Assembly: GCA_964522055.1 (NCBI GenBank)
Contig: CAZFUP010000001.1
Location: 8,577-72,576 of the forward strand
DNA from: an uncultured Gammaproteobacteria bacterium
GTDB lineage: Bacteria; Patescibacteriota; Patescibacteriia; Patescibacteriales; UBA12465
Length of the DNA: 64,000 bases
Direction: 5' to 3'
Below are positions 7,820-64,000 of the stretch, one piece after another; position 1 is the stretch's first letter, and each line of letters opens with the position of its first letter. The notes under the pieces are model-generated. The model did no database searches. It was not told where the DNA came from and was given only the letters and a program-made list of their open reading frames with translations. Position numbers and translations under genes: made by a program.

Positions 7820-8974
7820 ATGTTTTTAAAAACTTGGCGAAAAAAAATTTTTAATACGCGGCCAAACGAACATGAGCCTGATAAAAGTTTAATTAGTGCG
7901 GTCTTTTTTCTGCTAATTTTTGGATTAGTGATGCTTTTTAGTGCTTCATCGGTTGTCTCTTATGCTCGTTTTGGCAATACTTATCATTATTTTTTTCGTC
8001 AGTTTGTTTGGATTATTTTGTCTGTTGGCTTATTTTATTTAGTTAGCAAAATTGATTATCGGATTTTGAAAAAATTTGCTTCTTTTTTTCTCTTAGCCTC
8101 TATTCTTTTACTTATTTTAGTGTTTATTCCTGGCCTGCGAGCTGAATATGGAACTGCTCGTAGTTGGATTAATATTTTTGGTTATTCTTTCCAACCATCA
8201 GAGCTTGTAAAGCTTTCTTTTTTAATTTATTTGGCGACCTGGTTAGAAGCGAAGGGCGGCCAGCTTAATAGCGCTTCTTCTGGGATTATTCCTTTTTTAA
8301 TTGTTTTATTCCTTATTTCGGTTTTAATGTTTTTGCAGCCAGATCTTGGCACTTTATGTATTATTGTTGCTATGGCGGTTATGGTCTTTTTTGCCGGTGG
8401 CGGCAAGATTTTTCACCTCCTTCTAACTGGCGCCTTACTCGCCTTGGTTCTTTTTTCCGTTTTTAGTTTAAAAGGTGATAATTATCAAATGGATAGGTTT
8501 AAATGTTTAAAGGATCCAAGTTATAGTGCCCAAGATAAGTGTTATCAGATTAATCAATCTTTAATTGCAATTGGCTCTGGTGGTTGGTTTGGTAGGGGAA
8601 TAGGACAAAGTCGTCAAAAGTTTATGTATTTACCTGAAGTTTGGGGAGATTCAATTTTTCCAATTATTGCTGAAGAGATTGGTTTTGTTTTTAGCTCTCT
8701 TTTGATTTTACTTTATCTTTTTATCTTTTATCGGGGGCTTTTAATTGCCAGGGCTGCGCCAGATCTTTATGGCAGCATACTAGCTATTGGTATAGTTGCT
8801 TGGTTGTCGGTACAAACCTTTTTAAATATAGGTGGGATGATAAATTTAATTCCTATGACAGGAGTACCTTTGCCTTTTATTTCTGCTGGCGGATCTTCAA
8901 TTATGGCCAGCTTGCTGGCAATGGGAATTTTAGTTAATATCAGTAAACAGACTAAACAGTCTTATCGGCGTTAG
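7820..8974 (+). CDS. ftsW: SEDS-family peptidoglycan polymerase FtsW/RodA
   Basis: Polytopic membrane protein with SEDS signature region (GGWFGRGIGQS...LPEVWGDSIFPIIAEEIGF); position between mraY and murG. Confidence 0.8.
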   Translation: MFLKTWRKKIFNTRPNEHEPDKSLISAVFFLLIFGLVMLFSASSVVSYARFGNTYHYFFRQFVWIILSVGLFYLVSKIDYRILKKFASFFLLASILLLILVFIPGLRAEYGTARSWINIFGYSFQPSELVKLSFLIYLATWLEAKGGQLNSASSGIIPFLIVLFLISVLMFLQPDLGTLCIIVAMAVMVFFAGGGKIFHLLLTGALLALVLFSVFSLKGDNYQMDRFKCLKDPSYSAQDKCYQINQSLIAIGSGGWFGRGIGQSRQKFMYLPEVWGDSIFPIIAEEIGFVFSSLLILLYLFIFYRGLLIARAAPDLYGSILAIGIVAWLSVQTFLNIGGMINLIPMTGVPLPFISAGGSSIMASLLAMGILVNISKQTKQSYRR

Positions 8975-53874: not shown

Positions 53875-53949
53875 TCCCGGGTAGCGCAGCGGTAGCGCAG
53901 TTGGCTGTTAACCAATTGGTCGTCGGTTCGAATCCGACCCCGGGAGCCA
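53875..53949 (+). tRNA. tRNA-Asn (anticodon GTT), CCA encoded
   Basis: Hand-folded cloverleaf: acceptor TCCCGGG/CCCGGGA, D-arm GCGC-AGCGGTA-GCGC, anticodon arm GTTGG-CTGTTAA-CCAAT (anticodon GTT at 53907-53909), T-arm GTCGG-TTCGAAT-CCGAC, discriminator G, CCA. Confidence 0.9.
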
Positions 53950-54107: not shown

Positions 54108-56231
54108 ATGGCTTATAACGGTAGAAAATTGAATAAATATATTTGGATTCCGAAATCAAAAACTGACCTAAGGGAATATAGGGAATTTTTGAAAATTTGT
54201 GATTCTCTTGAAAAAAGAGATGGGTTTTTTAATGATAAAACTATCGGGGAAGAAATGGTTAGTTTAAGGGCTATTGTGGATAGAGATAACACTGCTTCGT
54301 CATATATAGAAAAATATAAAGATAAAAAAGTTGGAGATCAGTCTTATGTGAGTAATGCCAGAATGCTTATAAGAATTTTTAGGTGGTTAGGCTTTATAAC
54401 TAAAGATTATAATCAGGAGATAGATGGAAAGTATTATTTGACTCCGTATGGAAAAGAATTACTTGAATTTCGTGGGCCGATCAAGGAAGAAGAAATTGAT
54501 ATTTTCAGAAATGCTTTTGCTAATATGAGATTTTTTAGTCAAAACGATGATATTAATTATAGAAATTATTATTTTAAGCAAAGGCCATTTTTTAATTTGA
54601 TAAGATTTTTAGATATATTAAATTATGCTTCTCATTACGAGCTAGCTCTTTCAGCACTAGTTTTAAAAGATGAATCTGCGACCGAGATCAAAGAAAAAAT
54701 TGATAAAATAATAAAATGTAGAAAGGAAAAAAATATAAGATGGTTAATGAATGAATATGATTTGGATTGCGATAATAAAAGTCGAGTAACTGGAATATAT
54801 GATGGCCCAAAAGTTTTATTGTCGTTTGCTAAGCAAATGGGGTTAGCAGAAGAGATGGATTTAAGAAGCCCTCAAAACAAAGAAGAATACAAATTGTATA
54901 AAAGGATGTATAGTGACAGTGGTCAGATTTCCGAAAAAAGTGTTAAAAAAATAACAAGAATTACTAAGCTTGGTAAAGATTTTGTTAAAAAATTTGGTGA
55001 TAAAAAATTATTATGGTTCAATGATCTGAATGTGGCAGAAGTAGCTCTTCTATTGCTCGTGATGAAGAATGAAAGCGCTTCAACTTTAGATCTAAAAGAA
55101 CTTGGATTAGAACCAGACAGTTTAAACGATATTTTTATTGTTGAGAATAACAAGGTAGGTGTTGTTGAATCTTTTAATTTTGATTTATATAGAGATGTTC
55201 CTTATGAGGATAGAAAAAAAGTTATTTCATTGATTAACAAAGTTGATAAAAATTTTTTCTCTCATTCATTAAAACATAATACTGATAGCAATAAACAAAT
55301 ATATATTCAAAACGCTGATTACATGGAATGTAAAGAATGCTATTTTGGAAAATGTGCTTTCTATAGAAATAAAATAGACAGTTTTGGAGGTAGTGACAGA
55401 TTTTCAAGCAGAGTGTGCCCAGAAAATTTACTAAATTTTGACGATAAAGGTTATTTGCATATTGATAGCGAAGAATGTGTTGGTTGTGGCCTATGTTTTA
55501 TTTCTTGCCCTTTTGCCGCTATATCAATAGATGAAAATAGCAAATGTTTTAAAAATGAATCAACTAATTCTGGGGAGCTGATTGATATAAGAAAAAAAGA
55601 GGAGTTGACTATTTTATCAGAAAATAAAGCTGAACAAAAAAACAATATATCTTTAAGTGATATACCAACTTTAGTCAATAATTTTATTGATAAGATAAAT
55701 AGACCTGGTAAGAAATGGGATAAGGATCGTTGCTATACCTATGTAAGAAATGTTTTTAGAATATTTGATGTAGATGCTGTGTATTCAGGTTCTGGCGGAA
55801 TGAAAACAAGGTCGGATGTATCCATAATTTCTCCTTTTGTAGCTGTCAGTGAGGTTAAAAGTCCAGCAGAGTCGCCTATAAATTTAAAAGCTGTAAGACA
55901 GGCTGTTGACGCTGCTGTTCAGTCTGAAACGAAACTAACTATGGCAATCGGTTTAACAACACATAGTGGAGCCGTGGATCAGGAAACAAAATATTTTAAA
56001 ACCATGGGAATAGGTGTTTTATTGTTGGAAATAAAATATATTTCTTTTATTTCTTTTCTGAGTTTATTTGTTAAATTTACTCCGGATTCATTAAAAAGAT
56101 TAATATCTAATAATAGAGGGCTTTTTGGAAAAAATGAATTAAAAAAATACCTATTTGATGAAATAGATATTTTAAACAGTGATATAAATAAAGAGGAACT
56201 AATAGCAGTAATTGATAAATTGTTTATTTAA
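54108..56231 (+). CDS. Candidate restriction endonuclease-like protein with embedded 2x[4Fe-4S] ferredoxin-like cysteine motif and C-terminal PD-(D/E)xK-like motif
   Basis: Eight Cys around aa 430-480: CKECYFGKC...VCP...CVGCGLCFISCP (canonical CxxCxxCxxxCP). D-x13-E-V-K (SDVSIISPFVAVSEVKS) near aa 590. Convergent with, and overlapping by 8 nt, two DNA methyltransferase genes. Confidence 0.4.
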   Translation: MAYNGRKLNKYIWIPKSKTDLREYREFLKICDSLEKRDGFFNDKTIGEEMVSLRAIVDRDNTASSYIEKYKDKKVGDQSYVSNARMLIRIFRWLGFITKDYNQEIDGKYYLTPYGKELLEFRGPIKEEEIDIFRNAFANMRFFSQNDDINYRNYYFKQRPFFNLIRFLDILNYASHYELALSALVLKDESATEIKEKIDKIIKCRKEKNIRWLMNEYDLDCDNKSRVTGIYDGPKVLLSFAKQMGLAEEMDLRSPQNKEEYKLYKRMYSDSGQISEKSVKKITRITKLGKDFVKKFGDKKLLWFNDLNVAEVALLLLVMKNESASTLDLKELGLEPDSLNDIFIVENNKVGVVESFNFDLYRDVPYEDRKKVISLINKVDKNFFSHSLKHNTDSNKQIYIQNADYMECKECYFGKCAFYRNKIDSFGGSDRFSSRVCPENLLNFDDKGYLHIDSEECVGCGLCFISCPFAAISIDENSKCFKNESTNSGELIDIRKKEELTILSENKAEQKNNISLSDIPTLVNNFIDKINRPGKKWDKDRCYTYVRNVFRIFDVDAVYSGSGGMKTRSDVSIISPFVAVSEVKSPAESPINLKAVRQAVDAAVQSETKLTMAIGLTTHSGAVDQETKYFKTMGIGVLLLEIKYISFISFLSLFVKFTPDSLKRLISNNRGLFGKNELKKYLFDEIDILNSDINKEELIAVIDKLFI

Positions 56232-56994
56232 TAGCAGACAACCTTTTTTTTGCAATTTTAATATAATCATTATTGAGTTCGAATCCAATATAGTTTCTAT
56301 TATTTATTTTAGCGCTCACTAATTCACTCCCAGATCCAGCAAATGGAACAAGTATTAAATCATTTTCATTTGAAAAATGTTTTATTATTTTGTCGCATAT
56401 GGCTATTGGTTTCTGTGTTGGGTGCTCCACTTTCTCTTTTTCAAAATTTTTTCCTGCTAGTGTTGGTATTTGCCAAACATCACCGCCATGTTTTCCTAAT
56501 GGGTTAGGCATCCATGATTTTCCATTTTTAGTTATTTTATATTTAATCCTATCAGCGCTTTTGTAAGGCTCTCTTATTGGGTGGTATGTATATTTTTTTG
56601 ATTTTGTAAACCAAAGTAATGGTTCATAGTTTGCTGATGGTTTTTTGGTATAACCTGACCAGCCATTTTCATAAAACCATATAAACATTCTTCCATATTT
56701 TAACCCTAGCTCATATAAATAGCATTGTGTGTAACAAATATAATCATGAATACCATATACAAATATAGATCCATTGTCTTTTAAAACTCTTTTTGATTCT
56801 TTTAGCCATTCTTTGCTCCATTCGAACCAATCTTCAACGTTTTCCCATTTATCACTATTGTTGCCAAAATCTTTGTTTAAATTATATGGTGGGTCAATAA
56901 TAATCAAATCTACCGAGTTATCAGGTAGATTTTTCATTAATTTAACACAATCTCCACTATATATTTTATTTTTTTGAATTTTTATCTTTTGCAT
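56224..56994 (-). CDS. DNA methyltransferase, beta-class amino-MTase (N6-adenine or N4-cytosine), DPPY type
   Basis: N-terminal IYSGDCVKLMKNLPDNSVDLIIIDPPYN (motif IV) and C-terminal HPTQKPIAICDKII...LVPFAGSGSE (motifs X/I). Confidence 0.85.
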   Translation of the reverse strand: MQKIKIQKNKIYSGDCVKLMKNLPDNSVDLIIIDPPYNLNKDFGNNSDKWENVEDWFEWSKEWLKESKRVLKDNGSIFVYGIHDYICYTQCYLYELGLKYGRMFIWFYENGWSGYTKKPSANYEPLLWFTKSKKYTYHPIREPYKSADRIKYKITKNGKSWMPNPLGKHGGDVWQIPTLAGKNFEKEKVEHPTQKPIAICDKIIKHFSNENDLILVPFAGSGSELVSAKINNRNYIGFELNNDYIKIAKKRLSAIK

Positions 56995-57880
56995 TTTGTA
57001 AAATCAATATGTATTGATGATGAATATTGGGAACATAAGCATATGGATATCCATATGGGTAAACCTTTTTTCTGCTTTGGTATAAAACAGTAATACCTTT
57101 TAGAACGAAATTTCCCTTGGATTCTATATAATTGGATAGATCAGTATGAAAAGGGTATAATCTCTCTTTGTGTCTAAGGTCACTGACTACGATTGCAATG
57201 TATTTTTTATTTTTTAATATTCTGTGGCAATCGTTAAAAAAATCTCCGAGAACTTCTATGAATTTATTATAGTTTTTAATTGTGGAAATATCATTTTTGT
57301 TTCCATCGCTGTATTTTGTATCCAATTTATTATTAAGCCTTTCTTGTTTTGCTTTATGATCAATTTTTTCTAGTATGTTCCAATATGGAGGACTTGTAAC
57401 AATAAAATCGAAAAAATCATTTTCAATTTTTTTAATTTCTTTTATTGAATCGCCGTTGATAATTTTCTGCTCTGGATATTTATTTGGGTAATCAACTATT
57501 TCTTTTTTTAATCTTTTTTTGGATAGATCGGAATATTTTTTCATCAGTTCTATCCCATATCCAATTCTACCGCTAAGAGCAGTTGCTTTTAGGGTTGACC
57601 CTACTCCCAAAAACGGATCAAGAACTTTATCCTGTTTTTTTGTAAAAAAATTTATCAGCCTAGAAACATCCTGATAAGAATATGGTGCGGGGTGCATTCT
57701 TTCTATTTCGGTATCCTTATGTTTGGCCCCCAAACCTTTCTGTAGAAACACAGATATTGTTTCCGGTATCCATTCTTTCGAAGTTAAATCATTTAGTTTG
57801 TTTCTTTTATCGTAAATGCCCCTTTCGCCTTTATCAACCCCGTTTTTGCTTTTTTTTGTTGTTTTTTCTTCTTTTTTCAT
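56966..57880 (-). CDS. DNA methyltransferase (amino-MTase, SPPY type, probably N4-cytosine or N6-adenine; motif order X-I...IV)
   Basis: HPAPYSYQDVSRLINFF...VLDPFLGVGST (motifs X/I) followed by FDFIVTSPPYWN (motif IV); overlaps downstream MTase by 29 nt. Confidence 0.8.
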   Translation of the reverse strand: MKKEEKTTKKSKNGVDKGERGIYDKRNKLNDLTSKEWIPETISVFLQKGLGAKHKDTEIERMHPAPYSYQDVSRLINFFTKKQDKVLDPFLGVGSTLKATALSGRIGYGIELMKKYSDLSKKRLKKEIVDYPNKYPEQKIINGDSIKEIKKIENDFFDFIVTSPPYWNILEKIDHKAKQERLNNKLDTKYSDGNKNDISTIKNYNKFIEVLGDFFNDCHRILKNKKYIAIVVSDLRHKERLYPFHTDLSNYIESKGNFVLKGITVLYQSRKKVYPYGYPYAYVPNIHHQYILILQNAKDKNSKK

Positions 57881-57925: not shown

Positions 57926-59245
57926 TTAAATAAAAATTTGCTTGTTTTTCATTGTTAATCTGCTTTGAAGATTGGAAAGCAAATCTCTTTTTTCTATAAT
58001 ACTGCCTTCTTTGAGAATATATTTGGCATAATTTCTCATATCTACATCTTTCTGCTTTTCAAAATCTTTAGACTCTGTTTTTAGAATACTTCTACTAAAT
58101 TTATAATATCGTTCAACTTCTTCTTTAAACTGTCCTTGTATGCCAAGGATATTTAGGTCAATTTTATCAATCAGGTGGGATAGTTGGATTATTAATTCTT
58201 CTTCTCTTAAATAACCCCCTTTACAATGTAGGTTCCTAGCTCTTGTGCATCCATAATAAACATATCTTCTAACTGAGCCATCGCTCAGTTTTTTAAATTT
58301 TTCGTCAGCTGTGATTCCAGATCCACAATGACCGCATTTAATTAATTTAGTGAAAGCAAACTCTTTACATTCGTGTCTCTCGATATTATCTCTATCCAAT
58401 CTCTCTCTGGCTTTTTGAAATAACACCTTAGTAATGATTGGATCTTGTTTGCCTTGATACCATTTATCACTACCTATGGGATATTCAAATTCTCCGCAGT
58501 AATATGGATCGGCCAGTATTCTATAAATCATACTAAGAGTAAGATTTTTATTATTTTTTGTTTTAAAATCTGTTTCATTTACTATCCATCTTAGCAGTTG
58601 TCTGCCACTCCAATTTTCATAGGCCACTTTCTCGAATAATTTTTTAATATATGGCGCCCTCTTTGGGTCTATAAAAACTTTTTTATCGCCTTTGTCAGCA
58701 TATTTGTCATGAATATATCCAAGGGGTGCTGGTCCTGGTCGCCAACCTTTTTCGCACTTTGCTCTTAGCCCTCGTTTAACATTTATGCCTTTGTGGTCGT
58801 TTTCGAGCTTGGCTTGAGATCCAAGAATCATTAGAAGAAACTTCTCGTTGGGGTTATTTGTAAACTTTTGGCCATGCGTTCTTATCTCTTGAAGTCTACC
58901 TTGATCCATTAAGTCCACTACAGCCCCTAAATCGCCCGCATTACGGCTTAAGCGGTCTGGTGCCAAGCAAAGTATCCCATTAAACATTCCAGTCCTTATA
59001 TCGGCCAGTAATTGGTTGTAGACGGGTCTTTGGCCAGAATCCTTGGCTGAATGACTTTCTCGTCTTATATCGGCTATCTCCATGTTTTCAGCCTTTGCCA
59101 TTTCCAGCATCTCTTTTATTTGAGAATCAATAGAAAGGGCTTGCTGTTCGTCTGATTCTGTTGATTTTCTTGCATATAGGCAATACTTGATGGGAATTAC
59201 CTCTTGAACCCTTGTAAAACCCACGGTTTGTTGTTGTGTTTCCAT
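57926..59245 (-). CDS. Large serine recombinase (resolvase-domain integrase/transposase-type)
   Basis: N-terminal resolvase catalytic domain YCLYARKSTESDEQQALSIDSQ (Ser nucleophile) and ...RLSRN; recombinase domain; C-terminal zinc ribbon CGHCGS...YYGCTRARNLHC. Confidence 0.85.
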   Translation of the reverse strand: METQQQTVGFTRVQEVIPIKYCLYARKSTESDEQQALSIDSQIKEMLEMAKAENMEIADIRRESHSAKDSGQRPVYNQLLADIRTGMFNGILCLAPDRLSRNAGDLGAVVDLMDQGRLQEIRTHGQKFTNNPNEKFLLMILGSQAKLENDHKGINVKRGLRAKCEKGWRPGPAPLGYIHDKYADKGDKKVFIDPKRAPYIKKLFEKVAYENWSGRQLLRWIVNETDFKTKNNKNLTLSMIYRILADPYYCGEFEYPIGSDKWYQGKQDPIITKVLFQKARERLDRDNIERHECKEFAFTKLIKCGHCGSGITADEKFKKLSDGSVRRYVYYGCTRARNLHCKGGYLREEELIIQLSHLIDKIDLNILGIQGQFKEEVERYYKFSRSILKTESKDFEKQKDVDMRNYAKYILKEGSIIEKRDLLSNLQSRLTMKNKQIFI

Positions 59246-59282
59246 ATTTTTACTAATTTTACTTAATTACAACAACATTAAT

Positions 59283-59650
59283 GACGCGACCCGCAAAGGT
59301 AGTCCAGGCCCCTGAAGTAGACAAACTGTTGGTAACTAAACTTTACTTTTATGCCTTTTTAAGCTATATTTTAAGTGCGAAACCACAATTGAATTTTCGA
59401 AAGACGTGCTTAAAAAGTACGGTCTCTTGTATATAGGAACGGGCACTCCGACCCATACAAGAGGCAGTCTTTCGGGACACCAATTGTGGTTTCGCAACCA
59501 GGTCGGGTGTCCGTTTTTGTTTTCGGGCATTTGACGTTTTATAAATCAAGTTAAGAGGGGGCATAACCTGCTGAGGCTGGTGGCCGTTCCTCCGGCCGAG
59601 CCGGACCGGAATCGGCCACCAGCCAACCTCGGGCAGGTTTGGCTATATGC
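59283..59650. ncRNA. Candidate structured non-coding RNA(s)/recombination-associated structured region (unclassified). Contains a ~120-nt extended hairpin (59376-59496) and a GC-rich (~65% GC) multi-helix element (59556-59645)
   Basis: Perfect 16-bp inverted repeat TGCGAAACCACAATTG (59376-59391)/CAATTGTGGTTTCGCA (59481-59496). Nested perfect IRs CGAAAGAC/GTCTTTCG and CTCTTGTAT/ATACAAGAG. 10-bp IR CTGGTGGCCG/CGGCCACCAG plus ACCTGC/GCAGGT. GC content far above the ~35% background. No ORF of note. Confidence 0.35.
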
Positions 59651-59710
59651 TGTTAATTAATCGCTTGGCACATTGACCTTTGTTCCGTGCTATTTTGAGA
59701 ATAGAGCAAT

Positions 59711-59740
59711 AAAAAAACACCAAAAAGAGAATTTTTGGTG
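59711..59740 (-). terminator. Rho-independent terminator (minus strand) for ORF 59813-60433
   Basis: On minus strand: CACCAAAAA-ttctc-TTTTTGGTG perfect 9-bp stem followed by TTTTTTT. Confidence 0.7.
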
Positions 59741-59812
59741 AATGTTTTGTGAAAGTATATATCAAAAAATCGCCCTTTTTGACCGATTTTCTAAGTTATT
59801 AACATTCACTGT

Positions 59813-60433
59813 TTATTTTGTTGATTTATTGAATTCTGGGCGGTATTTAAAAGGGATTGCTTTTGTTGGTGTTTTATAGTTATTTTGTGATTTTTGTATA
59901 AGACATAAAATATATTTAGATTCTTTAGCTATCCTTCCGTTAGTATCTTCAATTTCCTGCCTAAACACTCTGGAATCGATTTCATCTTTAGGTTTTTTGC
60001 CTAGATTTTTTATCCAACCATTGTAATCATGATATGTCTTAGCCCCATCTTGGTTATTATAGAAGAACCATATAATTAAGGCCCTTTGGCCATCAACCGG
60101 AATCTCGTCGTCTAAGTATTTGATAATTATTTGGCCGCTATTATCATTGCGTGTAATCACTAGTTTTTCTTTAGCCTTTTTTGTTTCTTGGTTTTCTGAT
60201 TCGTCATTTAGAAAATTTGATGTTGGATTTATAAGCCAAATGACCTTTCTGATTATATCGGAGTTTCTCATTCTGATAATTATTTTTTCTCGCCACCCTT
60301 GTTCTATTAACTTGAAGTATAAAAATCTGGCAAAAATGAAAAATAAAATAACTACCATTAGAAAAATAATGGTCATATTCCATATTGATTTAGTTGCCTC
60401 ATGAAGAGCTGAGGCGAATGCTGGGTCTGCCAT
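59813..60433 (-). CDS. Hypothetical membrane-anchored protein (single N-terminal TM helix plus ~165-aa soluble domain)
   Basis: IWNMTIIFLMVVILFFIFARFLYF hydrophobic segment near N-terminus; no recognisable motif; lies in the accessory island. Confidence 0.45.
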   Translation of the reverse strand: MADPAFASALHEATKSIWNMTIIFLMVVILFFIFARFLYFKLIEQGWREKIIIRMRNSDIIRKVIWLINPTSNFLNDESENQETKKAKEKLVITRNDNSGQIIIKYLDDEIPVDGQRALIIWFFYNNQDGAKTYHDYNGWIKNLGKKPKDEIDSRVFRQEIEDTNGRIAKESKYILCLIQKSQNNYKTPTKAIPFKYRPEFNKSTK

Positions 60434-60508
60434 ATTAAGTAAATATAAAACGTTATTTAGTTATTGTCAAAATCGAAAATGTCTTTTAATACTTAATGTT
60501 AATTTTTT

Positions 60509-60537
60509 TTGACTTTTTTGCTTAAAAATTGTAAGAT
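60509..60537 (+). promoter_or_regulatory. Candidate promoter for ORF 60550-61320
   Basis: TTGACT at 60509-60514, 17-nt spacer, TAAGAT at 60532-60537 preceded by TG. Confidence 0.3.
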
Positions 60538-60549
60538 TTAAGCAGATTT

Positions 60550-61320
60550 ATGAATTTATCTTTTAACGCTGCTTTGGCAGATAATTACACGAGCCAATCA
60601 CAAAAAATTAGAGTATTGACCGAAAGCTGGGTTGATAAAAATGCCTATTGCCCTAATTGTGGGCAGTTAAACGTAGATAAATACGGAAACAATAAACCGG
60701 TGGCCGATTTTTATTGTCCAAATTGCCATGAAGATTATGAATTAAAGAGTAAAAAAGATAGCGTTGGCGCAAAAATTGTTGACGGAGCTTATCGAACAAT
60801 GATTGAAAGATTAAATAGCAGTAATAACCCAAATTTCTTTTTATTAAATTATGATCTTGATGCTTTAGAGGTTTTAAATTTTTTAGTCATACCAAAACAT
60901 TTTTTTATTCCCGGAATCATTGAAAAAAGAAAACCGTTGGCAGAAACCGCCAGGCGAGCCGGTTGGATAGGCTGTAATATATTATTACACGGAATTCCGC
61001 AGTCCGGAAAAATATATTTTGTTAAAAATAAGATTGTTCAACCCAAGGAATTAGTTTTATCTGAATGGAAAAAGACTTTATTTTTAAGAGAAGAAAAAGA
61101 AGCTAGTGCAAAGGGTTGGTTGCTGGATATTATGAATTGCGTGGAAAAATTTAGAGGCAGAGAATTTTCGCTGGGCGAAGTTTATAAGTTTGAAGCCGGA
61201 TTGAGCAGGAAGTATCCTGATAACCGTCATATCAAAGATAAAATTCGTCAGCAGCTCCAATTCTTAAGAGATAAGAGGTATTTAAAATTTATAAATCGTG
61301 GAACCTATAAATTATTATAA
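60550..61320 (+). CDS. Zinc-ribbon-containing nuclease-like protein, candidate restriction endonuclease (possibly DpnI/Dam-replacing-family-like, methyl-directed)
   Basis: Two CPNC pairs (YCPNCGQ...FYCPNCHEDYELKSKK) with D-x10-E-L-K spacing reminiscent of PD-(D/E)xK; basic C-terminal region (RQQLQFLRDKRYLKF) compatible with a winged helix; located between defence-type genes. Confidence 0.4.
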   Translation: MNLSFNAALADNYTSQSQKIRVLTESWVDKNAYCPNCGQLNVDKYGNNKPVADFYCPNCHEDYELKSKKDSVGAKIVDGAYRTMIERLNSSNNPNFFLLNYDLDALEVLNFLVIPKHFFIPGIIEKRKPLAETARRAGWIGCNILLHGIPQSGKIYFVKNKIVQPKELVLSEWKKTLFLREEKEASAKGWLLDIMNCVEKFRGREFSLGEVYKFEAGLSRKYPDNRHIKDKIRQQLQFLRDKRYLKFINRGTYKLL

Positions 61321-61346
61321 TTTTTATACTGATTTAATAAAAAATT

Positions 61347-62711
61347 ATGAAACAAATAATAAATTACGATAAATTAATAGTCAATCCAGAAAACTATCGC
61401 TTTGATCCAGTGGATGGCCAGGAACAAGCAATAGATTTAATGATTGAAGAAAAGGGAGCGGAAATATTAAATATGGCGAAACATATCCTTGAAAAGGGCT
61501 TGGATCAGGCCAAGGATTTGAGGGTTTTAGAATTAAAAAATAAAGAGTATCTCGTTTTAGACGGCAATAGAAGAATTGTCGCAATCAAATGTCTTCATAA
61601 TCCGGAGTTAGTAAAAAATAAAAAATTACAAAATGCATTTAAATCACTTTTAAAGACTGGTAAGAAGCCAATATCAAAAATATTGTGTTTTGTGTATTTG
61701 AACGAAAAAGACGCGGCAGAATGGATTAAGTTAGACCACACCGGAAAAAACGATGGAGTTGGACAAGATTCTTGGGGTTCGCCTGAAAAAGAAAGATTTG
61801 GATATAAATTTGAAGGAACGATATCCCCGGCCATGCAAGCGGTTAATATCATAGAAAAAGAACTTGGCAAAAAAATTAATACTAAAAAATTAAAGATATC
61901 CACAGTAAATCGCATATTATCTAGCCCTGACGCTCGTTTATATGTAGGTGTGAATGTTGATAAAGGCAATTTAACTTTTACTTGTGATAAAAACGAGGCA
62001 ATTAAACGATTAGACACTTTGGTTGATAAGATTATTACAAGTAATGTTACTGTTGGCACTGTATATCACAAACCTCAAATAGTAGAGTTTGTTACAGATC
62101 TTTACGGCGCAAAACCTGCTACGTGTAAAAAGCCAACCCTTCCTTTTCCAAGTGTTAGTAATGTGTCTGTCGGTGGTAAGGCCGTACCAGGCACATTAGT
62201 GAAAAATGACTGGATTGATTATAAGGAATATACCGCATATAATGGACCTGAAAAAGTAAAGAAATTACTTAATGAAATGAGGTCATTAGACCCAAAACAA
62301 AATGCAAATATATTAATGCCAGCTTTGCGTGTTTTGTTGGAATTATGTTTATATGATAAATTAAGACAGACAGGACATATCGTAAAATTAGTAAATATTT
62401 ATAAATCTAATATAAAGAATGAAAATACTAATAGAGCTAAGAAGGGAGCGGCCTTAATTTCTGAAAAAAAGAATTGGACGCCAAGTTTTAGAGAAATGCT
62501 AAATTATATTGTCGAAGAAAATAGCGGTGTAATTAATGACCCGCAAGCGCGAGAAATTTTAGAAAAAAAGATTAAAAAGGAAGATAATTTTGTAAAAGGT
62601 CTTAACGATTTCATACATAATGTCCACGATATTCCTGCTAAAGACGATCCAGAAAAAACCTGGAGCGGATTCGGTCGATTACTTTTTGATATAATTAAAG
62701 ATATAAAATAG
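61347..62711 (+). CDS. ParB/Srx-fold (ParBc, ParB-like nuclease/NTPase domain) protein with uncharacterised C-terminal region
   Basis: N-terminal LIVNPENYRFDPV (PNPxQPR-like box) and RVLELKNKEYLVLDGNRRIVAIKCL (GERRxRA-like arginine finger) typical of the ParB N-terminal domain; no ParA partner nearby. Confidence 0.6.
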   Translation: MKQIINYDKLIVNPENYRFDPVDGQEQAIDLMIEEKGAEILNMAKHILEKGLDQAKDLRVLELKNKEYLVLDGNRRIVAIKCLHNPELVKNKKLQNAFKSLLKTGKKPISKILCFVYLNEKDAAEWIKLDHTGKNDGVGQDSWGSPEKERFGYKFEGTISPAMQAVNIIEKELGKKINTKKLKISTVNRILSSPDARLYVGVNVDKGNLTFTCDKNEAIKRLDTLVDKIITSNVTVGTVYHKPQIVEFVTDLYGAKPATCKKPTLPFPSVSNVSVGGKAVPGTLVKNDWIDYKEYTAYNGPEKVKKLLNEMRSLDPKQNANILMPALRVLLELCLYDKLRQTGHIVKLVNIYKSNIKNENTNRAKKGAALISEKKNWTPSFREMLNYIVEENSGVINDPQAREILEKKIKKEDNFVKGLNDFIHNVHDIPAKDDPEKTWSGFGRLLFDIIKDIK

Positions 62712-62720
62712 CAAATAAAT

Positions 62721-63590
62721 ATGTTTTTTTCCCCATTACGCTACCCTGGCGGTAAAAATAAACTAGCAAAATTTATTGCTATGATTTGTTTTGAAAATGA
62801 TATTAATGGACATTATATTGAGCCCTACGCCGGCGGAGCCGCAGTAGCTTTATATTTATTGATTAATGATAAAGTTTCTAAAATAACTATAAATGATAAA
62901 GATCGCTCAATTTATGCTTTTTGGTATTCTGTTTTAAATCATACAACTAAATTTTGTAATTCAATTAATAACACAGAGATAAATGTTAAAAATTGGAAAA
63001 AATTTAAGGAAGTTCAAAAAAATAAAGAAACTGCTGATTTATTTACTTTAGGTTTTTCAACATTTTTTCTTAATCGTACAAATGTTTCCGGCATTATCGA
63101 CGGCGGTATTATTGGTGGGCTAAAACAAGTGGGCAATTACAAGATTAATTGCAGATTTAATAAAAAAACTTTAATTGAAAGAATTAAAAAAATCGCTTCT
63201 TGTAAAGATAAAATAGAATTATACAATTTAGATGCCTTGGATTTAATTAAAAGAATTAATAAAGAATGCAGAAGTTCAAATAAAATATTTTATTTTGACC
63301 CTCCGTATTATTTAAAAGGCGAATCGCTATATTTAAATTGTTATAAGCCAGACGACCATAAACAAGTTAGTGAAGAAATAATAAAGATTAAAAATGCGAA
63401 ATGGATAGTTTCTTATGACAATACGACGGAGATAAAAAAGTTATATAGTAATTGTCAAAAAATTGAATATTCATTTTTTCATACAGCACGCGAAGCAAAA
63501 ATAGGGAAAGAAATTTTATTTTTTTGTGATAAGCTTAAAGTTCCGGTCGTACCAGACCCAACAAGACTTGTCGAAAATGATTATGAATAA
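62721..63590 (+). CDS. DNA adenine methyltransferase, Dam/D12 class (N6-adenine)
   Basis: N-terminal FSPLRYPGGKNKLAKFI (D12-class AdoMet motif), catalytic FYFDPPYY. Confidence 0.8.
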   Translation: MFFSPLRYPGGKNKLAKFIAMICFENDINGHYIEPYAGGAAVALYLLINDKVSKITINDKDRSIYAFWYSVLNHTTKFCNSINNTEINVKNWKKFKEVQKNKETADLFTLGFSTFFLNRTNVSGIIDGGIIGGLKQVGNYKINCRFNKKTLIERIKKIASCKDKIELYNLDALDLIKRINKECRSSNKIFYFDPPYYLKGESLYLNCYKPDDHKQVSEEIIKIKNAKWIVSYDNTTEIKKLYSNCQKIEYSFFHTAREAKIGKEILFFCDKLKVPVVPDPTRLVENDYE

Positions 63591-64000
63591 TTTTAATAAA
63601 GAAGAATTTGAAAAATTAAAAAACAAAGTAGACGCCGAATATAAAAGTATCGGCAGTATTTATAGTCCAGCATTAAAATCTAATATCGCGTTTAATTCTA
63701 ATGGTTTTCATCATTTACGTTATGATAATACCAGGGCTGAAAGAAGTAAGCCGGCTCAGTTAAATAAATTTAGATTTTTTGGCGATGCAATAAATTCAAT
63801 TAAAATTTCAACGACTATTCAAGAGTATCGACGAGTTAAAAATTTCATATGCGGTAAAGAATCTGTTGTAGAGTGGTTTGCTTTTTGGTCTATAACTAGT
63901 TTTATAAAACAGATTAGAATTAGAGTTATAGTTAGAAGAGTGGGCGGAGAAGACGGACAATTTCATTTTTGGAGTGTTATGCCATTTTGGTCTCTTCAAC
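63583..64000 (+). CDS. Hypothetical protein, 3' partial (runs off window end; start overlaps Dam stop, ATGAATAA)
   Basis: ATG at 63583; open frame to the window end, translating MNNFNKEEFEKLKNKVDAEYKSIGSIYSPALKSNIAFNSNGFHHLRYDNTRAERSKPAQL...; not listed in the ORF track because no stop lies within the window. Confidence 0.35.
   Translation, partial: MNNFNKEEFEKLKNKVDAEYKSIGSIYSPALKSNIAFNSNGFHHLRYDNTRAERSKPAQLNKFRFFGDAINSIKISTTIQEYRRVKNFICGKESVVEWFAFWSITSFIKQIRIRVIVRRVGGEDGQFHFWSVMPFWSLQ

Follow-up and report, generated by a model that had tools for sequence, protein, structure and literature searches.

PD-λ-5 emerged from a functional selection in Escherichia coli and was shown to be an anti-phage system (Vassallo et al., 2022, Nat Microbiol, PMC9519451). 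The prototype, a two-gene operon cloned from ECOR7 (proteins RCQ13837.1 and RCQ13838.1), guards E. coli against many phages; it is labelled "ParB/HEPN, methyltransferase" in Table S1 of that study, and its authors read it as a 'compact RM+Abi', that is, restriction-modification (RM) joined to abortive infection (Abi) (PMC9519451). By HHpred, the first protein of the prototype (component A) contains ParBc at residues 6-89 (96.4%) and a weak match to DUF4145 (35.6%), while the second (component B) contains MethyltransfD12 (99.9%) (PMC9519451). Propagation of PD-λ-5 required an mrr-deleted host (PMC9519451), which points to an active adenine methylase other than Dam. The pair of genes described here lies in 64,000 nucleotides (nt) of DNA from an uncultured Gammaproteobacteria bacterium (Patescibacteriota; Patescibacteriia; Patescibacteriales; UBA12465 in the GTDB lineage), namely positions 8,577 to 72,576 of contig CAZFUP010000001.1 (assembly GCA_964522055.1). 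This whole stretch is referred to below as the window, and all coordinates are counted from its first letter.

An original prediction, made from the letters of the window, had singled out an open reading frame (ORF) at 61347-62711 with the motifs NPENYRF and LDGNRRIVA, and had proposed that its ParB-fold product forms an operon-like functional module with a D12-class DNA methyltransferase (MTase). The ORF and both motifs are present. The module idea is correct, yet not new, as both genes match PADLOC models for PD-Lambda-5. The pair and the domains of its first protein are as follows.

61347..62711, plus strand: PD-λ-5 component A, a ParB-like protein of 454 amino acids (aa) with an ATG start (PADLOC, homologs, AlphaFold2 model)
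61347..61742, plus strand: component A, aa 1-132, ParB/Srx-fold N-domain, alpha/beta (Foldseek, hhalign, invariant residues)
61743..62132, plus strand: component A, aa 133-262, conserved loop and helical domain, probably a ParB-like helix-turn-helix (HTH) DNA-binding domain (Foldseek, hhalign)
62148..62204, plus strand: component A, aa 268-286, disordered linker of variable length (predicted local distance difference test, pLDDT, <50; length and sequence vary in the alignment)
62205..62708, plus strand: component A, aa 287-454, all-alpha C-terminal domain of class 1 (the 165-aa domain proper at aa 290-454), a putative effector whose HEPN-like status is unproven
62721..63590, plus strand: PD-λ-5 component B, a D12-class N6-adenine DNA MTase of 289 aa (PADLOC, Pfam)

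The best PADLOC model for component A is PD-Lambda-5_A PDLC03998 (E=5.8e-78, 260.8 bits), with 26 PD-Lambda-5_A models matching in all, and the best for component B is PD-Lambda-5_B PDLC04018 (E=1.8e-117). Component A also matches phrog_9592 in PHROGs (E=2.5e-39). Together with an architecture that matches Tables S1 and S3 of the original study (Vassallo et al., 2022, PMC9519451), these profiles are what the family assignment rests on, and they make it very probable that the window pair belongs to PD-λ-5. That the two genes make up an RM-like defence pair of the PD-λ-5 type is, in turn, probable. The pair is to be regarded as a further member of a known and already named defence family, the mechanism of which is unsolved. 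Like the prototype, it is a two-gene arrangement in which component A has a ParB-like N-domain, a long region and a helical C-terminal end, and component B is a D12-class adenine MTase; the HHpred profile of the prototype (ParBc at aa 6-89; MethyltransfD12) agrees with it. The two differ in that the prototype component A seems to be longer (its HHpred matches extend to residue 498, against 454 aa in the window), and in that the prototype resides in an E. coli prophage, whereas the window copy sits in a low-GC genome, probably a Patescibacteria metagenome-assembled genome to judge from the nearest homologs, beside a DpnI-family gene and a serine recombinase.

The association of the two genes is strict. 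Homologs of component A number 120, and a scan of one genome per species gave 19 loci, from Patescibacteria, DPANN archaea (Woese-, Pace-, Aenigm- and Parvarchaeota), Poribacteria, Proteobacteria, Actinomycetota and a cultured Eubacterium. Downstream DNA is present in 18 of these, the 19th stopping at a contig edge, and in all 18 informative loci a co-oriented MTase homolog (41-67% identity to that of the window) follows component A directly. Most of the pairs overlap or lie at most 10 nt apart; in the window, the spacing is 9 nt on the same strand. The original prediction would have been weakened by an absence of conserved co-occurrence with its neighbours, and what is found is an MTase beside component A in 18/18 loci and a DpnI-like gene in 0/19. 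When all flanking ORFs of the 19 loci are clustered, only components A and B recur. Serine recombinases are seen in four loci (beside the module in L002, L003 and L019) and N6_N4 MTases in three. As only the two genes recur across such diverse loci, the module consists of two genes and moves horizontally.

Several loci depart from this layout. In a Patescibacteria locus (L012:6001-6969), component A is truncated to 322 aa and followed by a gap of 455 nt and an intact MTase, which may represent a decayed system leaving an orphan methylase. P2-like phages (Wphi and a P2 variant; L020 and L023) carry a distant ParB-like relative (24.6% identity for Wphi gp98), followed by a second gene of no known kind and a convergent C5 cytosine methylase. 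In a Pseudomonas phage (OQ658368; L021:4463-5221), an unannotated, convergent D12 MTase homolog (47% identity) stands beside a gene resembling that of component A. On the strength of these phage loci, the theme of a ParB-like protein plus an MTase is broader than the exact PD-λ-5 layout.

Component A is assigned to the ParB superfamily by structure, since the standard hidden Markov models (HMMs) are silent. Neither Pfam nor NCBIfam gives a match at E<0.01; specifically, Pfam ParBc (PF02195) and HTH_ParB are absent for the window protein at that threshold and from the 25 most frequent families among 47 family members, and a family-profile search of PDB sequences returns chance matches only. The AlphaFold2 (AF2) model, built on an alignment of the same 47 sequences, has a mean pLDDT of 88.9. 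Its top Foldseek matches in the PDB are Noc (7nfu), ParB-CDP (6sdk), Myxococcus xanthus ParB (7bnk), KorB (8qa9) and Caulobacter crescentus ParB (7bm8), with probabilities of 1.00-0.99 and E-values from 4e-4 to 4e-3, and sulfiredoxin, SbnI and PadC rank lower in the list. The alignments to ParB, Noc and KorB cover about 265-284 columns, that is, the N-domain together with the helical DNA-binding domain. The ParB/Srx fold put forward in the original prediction is accordingly borne out by AF2 and Foldseek, not by HMMs, and the model indicates that component A carries a ParB N-domain and HTH fold.

The motifs fit this assignment. NPENYRF occupies aa 13-19 and LDGNRRIVA aa 71-79; within the latter, DGNRR (aa 72-76) is the counterpart of the GERR of ParB Box II (GxRR, P-motif). 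In the 47-sequence alignment N16, R18, G73, N74, R75, R76 and H131 are invariant. An hhalign comparison of the family profile with a Spo0J protein from a Bacillus thuringiensis plasmid sets NPENYRF on NPYQPRK and DGNRR on GERR (32% identity over 63 columns, E=0.044), an alignment that is weak alone and agrees with the fold result. The N-domain is followed by the loop LDHTGKNxGxGQDxW, with H131 and W143 invariant, and by the helical domain, which contains an invariant ISTINRILSNP segment including R189. A low-confidence extension of the hhalign alignment places the ParB HTH segment 'SRPYIANYTRLLSLP' on 'LKISTINRILSNP' of component A, in line with the Foldseek coverage. The domain at aa 133-262 co-evolves with the N-domain (Mantel r=0.90). 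Component A thus shares with the ParB/Spo0J, Noc and KorB clamps the N-domain fold, the NPxxxR box, the GxRR of Box II and a helical, HTH-like domain behind them. It departs from them in several respects: ParA is not encoded next to it, parS is missing, neither a dimerisation domain nor an ENLQRE motif can be recognised, and Pfam ParBc is silent. It also has additions, namely an extra helix at aa 92-102, the LDHTGKNxGxGQDxW loop and an effector-like C-terminal domain.

Behind the N-terminal boxes, the original prediction saw an unknown C-terminal region of 300 aa. The region exists, although not as one block: about half of it is the ParB-like DNA-binding domain and the other half an all-alpha domain, with the linker between them. 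Modelled alone, the all-alpha domain reaches a pLDDT of 88.4 and a predicted template modelling score (pTM) of 0.84. It has no significant Foldseek match in the PDB or BFVD. Five residues (E310, R328, E332, H424 and W439) are each kept in at least 235 of 240 class-1 domains, and from this conservation the set looks like an active site. The domain may resemble the HEPN superfamily (DUF4145-type): it is all-alpha, and it has a conserved His with N or H at position -4, a loop and a last helix after that His, and an R..xE conserved in one of the preceding helices. Among HEPN structures, Foldseek matches Csm6 and HepT at E>5 only, and the C-terminal domains hit no HEPN family in Pfam, even at E<=10. 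H424 is kept in 237 of the 240 domains, yet an Arg stands at -4 to -6 in only 11 of these 237, position -4 being N or H, so the canonical HEPN motif Rx4-6H is absent from the class-1 domain.

What stands at the C-terminus varies within the family. Across the 120 homologs, the ParB core is 45-68% identical to the window protein (aligned N-terminal part), and the C-termini fall into at least three classes, two helical and one TIR-like. Class 1 comprises 94 proteins, including the window protein, and has several subtypes; class 2 comprises 15 proteins with the motif LRLLVES...SGAHxY. The two helical classes align by hhalign at a non-significant E=0.043, with a shared NNIY...R..LE stretch. Class 3 comprises five proteins (P0073, P0081, P0091, P0101 and P0107) that keep the ParB core and end in an alpha/beta domain, with matches to the TIR clan that are sub-threshold yet consistent (CAP12-PCTIR_TIR at 7e-4 and 2.5e-3, TIR_2 at 6e-3, DUF4062 at 2e-3); the TIR-like class retains the downstream MTase at L014:6001-7371. 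Searched exhaustively by profile, the class-1 domain turns up in 2,417 representative clusters; where the top matches are full-length proteins, the ParB-like core is there too in 91 of 92. Different modules at the same position suggest a swappable C-terminal effector slot. Module swapping of this kind is typical of the effector slots of defence systems.

Component B belongs to the D12 class (Pfam MethyltransfD12, 7.6e-19), and its sole sequence match in the PDB is the adenine MTase entry 7m6b (1.2e-17). The original prediction had placed a Dam-class MTase 9 nt downstream of component A, which holds for the D12 class and for the exact spacing, although not for Dam orthology: against TIGR00571 (dam) the protein scores 55.4 bits, well below the cut-off of 114.85, and a Dam (GATC) orthologue is rejected on this ground. 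The gene upstream of component A, described in the original prediction as nuclease-like, bears on the same point.

60550..61320, plus strand: full-length DpnI-family methyl-directed endonuclease, 256 aa (Pfam DpnI 3.5e-82 and DpnI_C 4.5e-30; PADLOC mREase_II 2.3e-116)

DpnI-type enzymes cut GATC methylated on adenine. It follows from the presence of this gene that the host should lack methylation at GATC and that the target of the PD-λ-5 MTase should be a different one; component B should not be a GATC methylase, and judging by these sequences it should mark a non-GATC site.

These features can be assembled into a working mechanism. Component B, as an N6-methyladenine (m6A) DNA MTase, would place a self mark on host DNA, at a site other than GATC. 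Component A would be the restriction or effector protein: its ParB-type nucleotide-binding N-domain and ParB-like HTH would engage DNA, and an exchangeable C-terminal effector module would stand where ParB has its dimerisation domain. Gated by a nucleoside triphosphate (NTP) as in the ParB, Noc and KorB clamps, component A would load onto DNA that lacks the methyl mark of B and, once loaded, would attack the unmarked DNA or turn on its C-terminal effector, with a block of phage replication or an arrest of the cell as the outcome. In this scheme self-protection by methylation, the binding of NTP and DNA by component A, and the role of its C-terminal domain are all things that we infer, and as a whole it is offered tentatively, with more doubt than confidence. 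A more specific version, in which component A is an NTP-gated ParB-type clamp that reads the adenine methylation written by its partner, so that unmarked DNA triggers an interchangeable effector (the all-alpha E/R/E/H/W domain here, a TIR-like domain elsewhere), appears rather unlikely to hold in full.

Several observations weigh against this methylation-gated mechanism. The ParB core is more conserved than the MTase (61-66% identity for the core among L002-L004, compared with about 41% for the MTase), which is unexpected if the core reads the site of the MTase. No counterpart of the ParB ENLQRE motif could be mapped, as both relaxed and global hhalign gave low-confidence alignments only; the idea that LDHTGKN (aa 129-135) takes its place comes from the order of secondary structures alone and is of low confidence. 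With ENLQRE unmapped, NTP binding by component A is a prediction. The HEPN label for the C-terminus is supported neither by motif (11/237) nor by fold or Pfam, and is weak even for the prototype (DUF4145 at 35.6%). The anti-phage activity, and the MTase activity that the mrr requirement suggests, belong to the E. coli prototype, those of the window copy being predicted. In the later literature searched, PD-λ-5 is cited or counted and no biochemical mechanism is found. A 2025 survey of the ParB-CTPase fold names neither PD-λ-5 nor HEPN, and reports that neither sequence analysis nor AlphaFold3 reliably predicts the NTP specificity of this fold (PMC12704722). The similarity of the MTases across the 18 loci is tracked best by the C-terminal domain (Mantel r=0.60), followed by the N-domain (0.36) and the middle domain (0.27); as the C-terminus adjoins component B in the DNA, recombination linkage explains the value of 0.60 equally well as functional interaction, and no functional conclusion is drawn from it.

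Other readings of component A must be set against the proposal of a methyl-sensing defence protein. Enzymes of the DUF262-DUF1524 type place a C-terminal effector behind a ParB-like NTPase. Component A parallels this layout and could be a modification-dependent (type IV-like) enzyme of the GmrSD/BrxU/SspE kind, acting on modified phage DNA independently of B. GmrSD, BrxU and SspE, and likewise PD-T4-2 ('DUF262, HEPN' in Table S1; Vassallo et al., 2022, PMC9519451), resemble it in joining a ParB-superfamily nucleotide-binding sensor to an effector (in their case a C-terminal nuclease or HEPN domain) in a defence that is aware of DNA modification, and 13 of 47 family members show weak GmrSD_N (DUF262) matches (best E 0.0072), with a weak DndB match in one. 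However, all the DUF262 matches are sub-threshold and none concerns the window protein, component A has no DUF1524/HNH domain and none of the 47 family members has DUF1524, and GmrSD, BrxU and SspE target or sense modified DNA without a dedicated adenine MTase as partner. The strict coupling to an MTase in 18/18 loci would go unexplained if methylation played no part, and a type IV-like enzyme is clearly unlikely.

A second alternative makes the MTase the core of the system, say to shield a mobile element epigenetically or against restriction, with component A as a ParB-, KorB- or DndB-like DNA-binding NTP switch that regulates how strongly the MTase is expressed or how active it is. The structures closest to component A are indeed those of ParB-type DNA clamps, among them the transcriptional repressor KorB, its homologs occur in temperate phages, and DndB, also of the ParB superfamily, is a reported regulator of a DNA-modification operon, dnd (PMC10853773). 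A methylase with its regulator would not protect E. coli against many phages as the prototype pair does, and the swappable modules, including a TIR-like one, and the strictly conserved polar residues point to an effector, all of which renders a regulatory role for component A distinctly improbable. Among known proteins, phage-borne ParB-methyltransferase fusions also tie the ParB-CTPase fold to DNA methylation on mobile elements (PMC12704722). In the window, by contrast, each activity has its own gene, the MTase belongs to D12 and not to N6_N4, and the ParB protein has an effector-like domain of its own; an anti-defence role is suggested for the fusions, whereas the validated phenotype of the PD-λ-5 family is defence.

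The DpnI-family gene ends 26 nt upstream of component A on the same strand, and the three genes might be a co-transcribed, interdependent module in which the DpnI-like enzyme is, for instance, the DNA-cleaving arm. In keeping with this, the gaps are short (26 and 9 nt), neither the DpnI-A nor the A-B junction shows a terminator-like site on the plus strand, and the strongest promoter-like candidates are upstream of the DpnI gene. Yet the promoter and terminator scan performs within the expectation from shuffled sequence, DpnI-family enzymes are self-sufficient methyl-directed endonucleases (the gene here matches PADLOC mREase_II at E=2.3e-116), and a DpnI homolog is missing from 19/19 related loci. 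Co-transcription of the DpnI gene with A and B is possible; a three-gene system is very improbable, and the DpnI-family gene is treated as an independent neighbour in the island. An ordinary or degenerate partition ParB of a chromosome or plasmid is hardly credible at all: the fold and motif order of the ParB N-domain and HTH are present, and the HTH-like middle region answers to half of what the original prediction had named as marks of an ordinary partition protein, but neither adjacent gene encodes ParA (the original prediction of no ParA partner stands; a DpnI-like gene lies on one side and a D12 MTase on the other), the flanks of the 19 loci have no recurrent ParA-like gene, only AT-rich chance repeats and no parS-like palindromes occur in 59200-64000, the C-terminal domain significantly matches no solved structure, ParB dimerisation domains included, Pfam ParBc is silent, and the conserved partner is a DNA MTase.

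The surroundings of the proposed RM-like defence pair, between a tRNA-Asn and the end of the window, support the defence island of the original prediction: a serine recombinase, two further MTases and the DpnI-family enzyme are nearby. The remaining features of this neighbourhood are given below.

53875-53949: tRNA-Asn (tRNA call)
56224-56994 and 56966-57880, minus strand: two overlapping N6_N4 DNA MTase genes
57926-59245: large serine recombinase (Resolvase, Recombinase and Zn_ribbon_recom domains)
59813-60433, minus strand: protein of 206 aa whose N-terminal segment is hydrophobic, flanked by the recombinase and DpnI genes
63577-64000 and past the window end, plus strand: ORF of at least 141 aa, its first 14 nt overlapping the MTase gene

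The tRNA-Asn, the defence genes and the serine recombinase suggest an integrated mobile island. No repeat of the tRNA-Asn of at least 14 nt is found in the window, so the far boundary of the island probably lies past the window end. A 707-aa protein (54108-57880 region) abuts the two N6_N4 MTase genes and has a 4Fe-4S dicluster motif at aa ~430-480, with no further recognisable domain and no PADLOC model; together with the two MTases it may form a restriction-modification system with an Fe-S-cluster endonuclease. An inverted repeat (59376-59405 and 59467-59496) with 30-nt arms that are 83% complementary and 61 nt apart lies in a relatively GC-rich intergenic region, upstream of the recombinase gene; it has no match in Rfam and may be a site for recombination or encode a structured RNA. 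The 206-aa protein matches nothing in Pfam, NCBIfam, PADLOC or PHROGs. The ORF at 63577-64000 belongs to no Pfam or PHROG family and was rejected as a third gene of the module, its sole counterpart being a weak homolog (E=2e-7) in L010, which lies roughly 1 kb further downstream than the MTase.

The outcome for annotation is that the two genes can carry the name PD-λ-5, with A as the ParB-like protein and B as the m6A MTase, and that the reading as a partition protein should be dropped. As the family escapes Pfam ParBc, surveys of the ParB-CTPase fold that are based on Pfam would probably miss it. PD-λ-5 has a validated phenotype without a mechanism, and the domain findings offer handles for experiments. 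The details added here are the ParB N-domain and HTH core, the swappable C-terminal slot with its TIR-like class, the failure of motif and fold to back a HEPN label, the E/R/E/H/W set, and the abundance of the family in Patescibacteria and DPANN. If the proposed mechanism were true, PD-λ-5 would implement restriction-modification logic on a ParB switch, with no conventional restriction endonuclease, and would do so widely in Patescibacteria and DPANN archaea. In these lineages, where the pair is abundant, it represents one recognisable defence module for small genomes.

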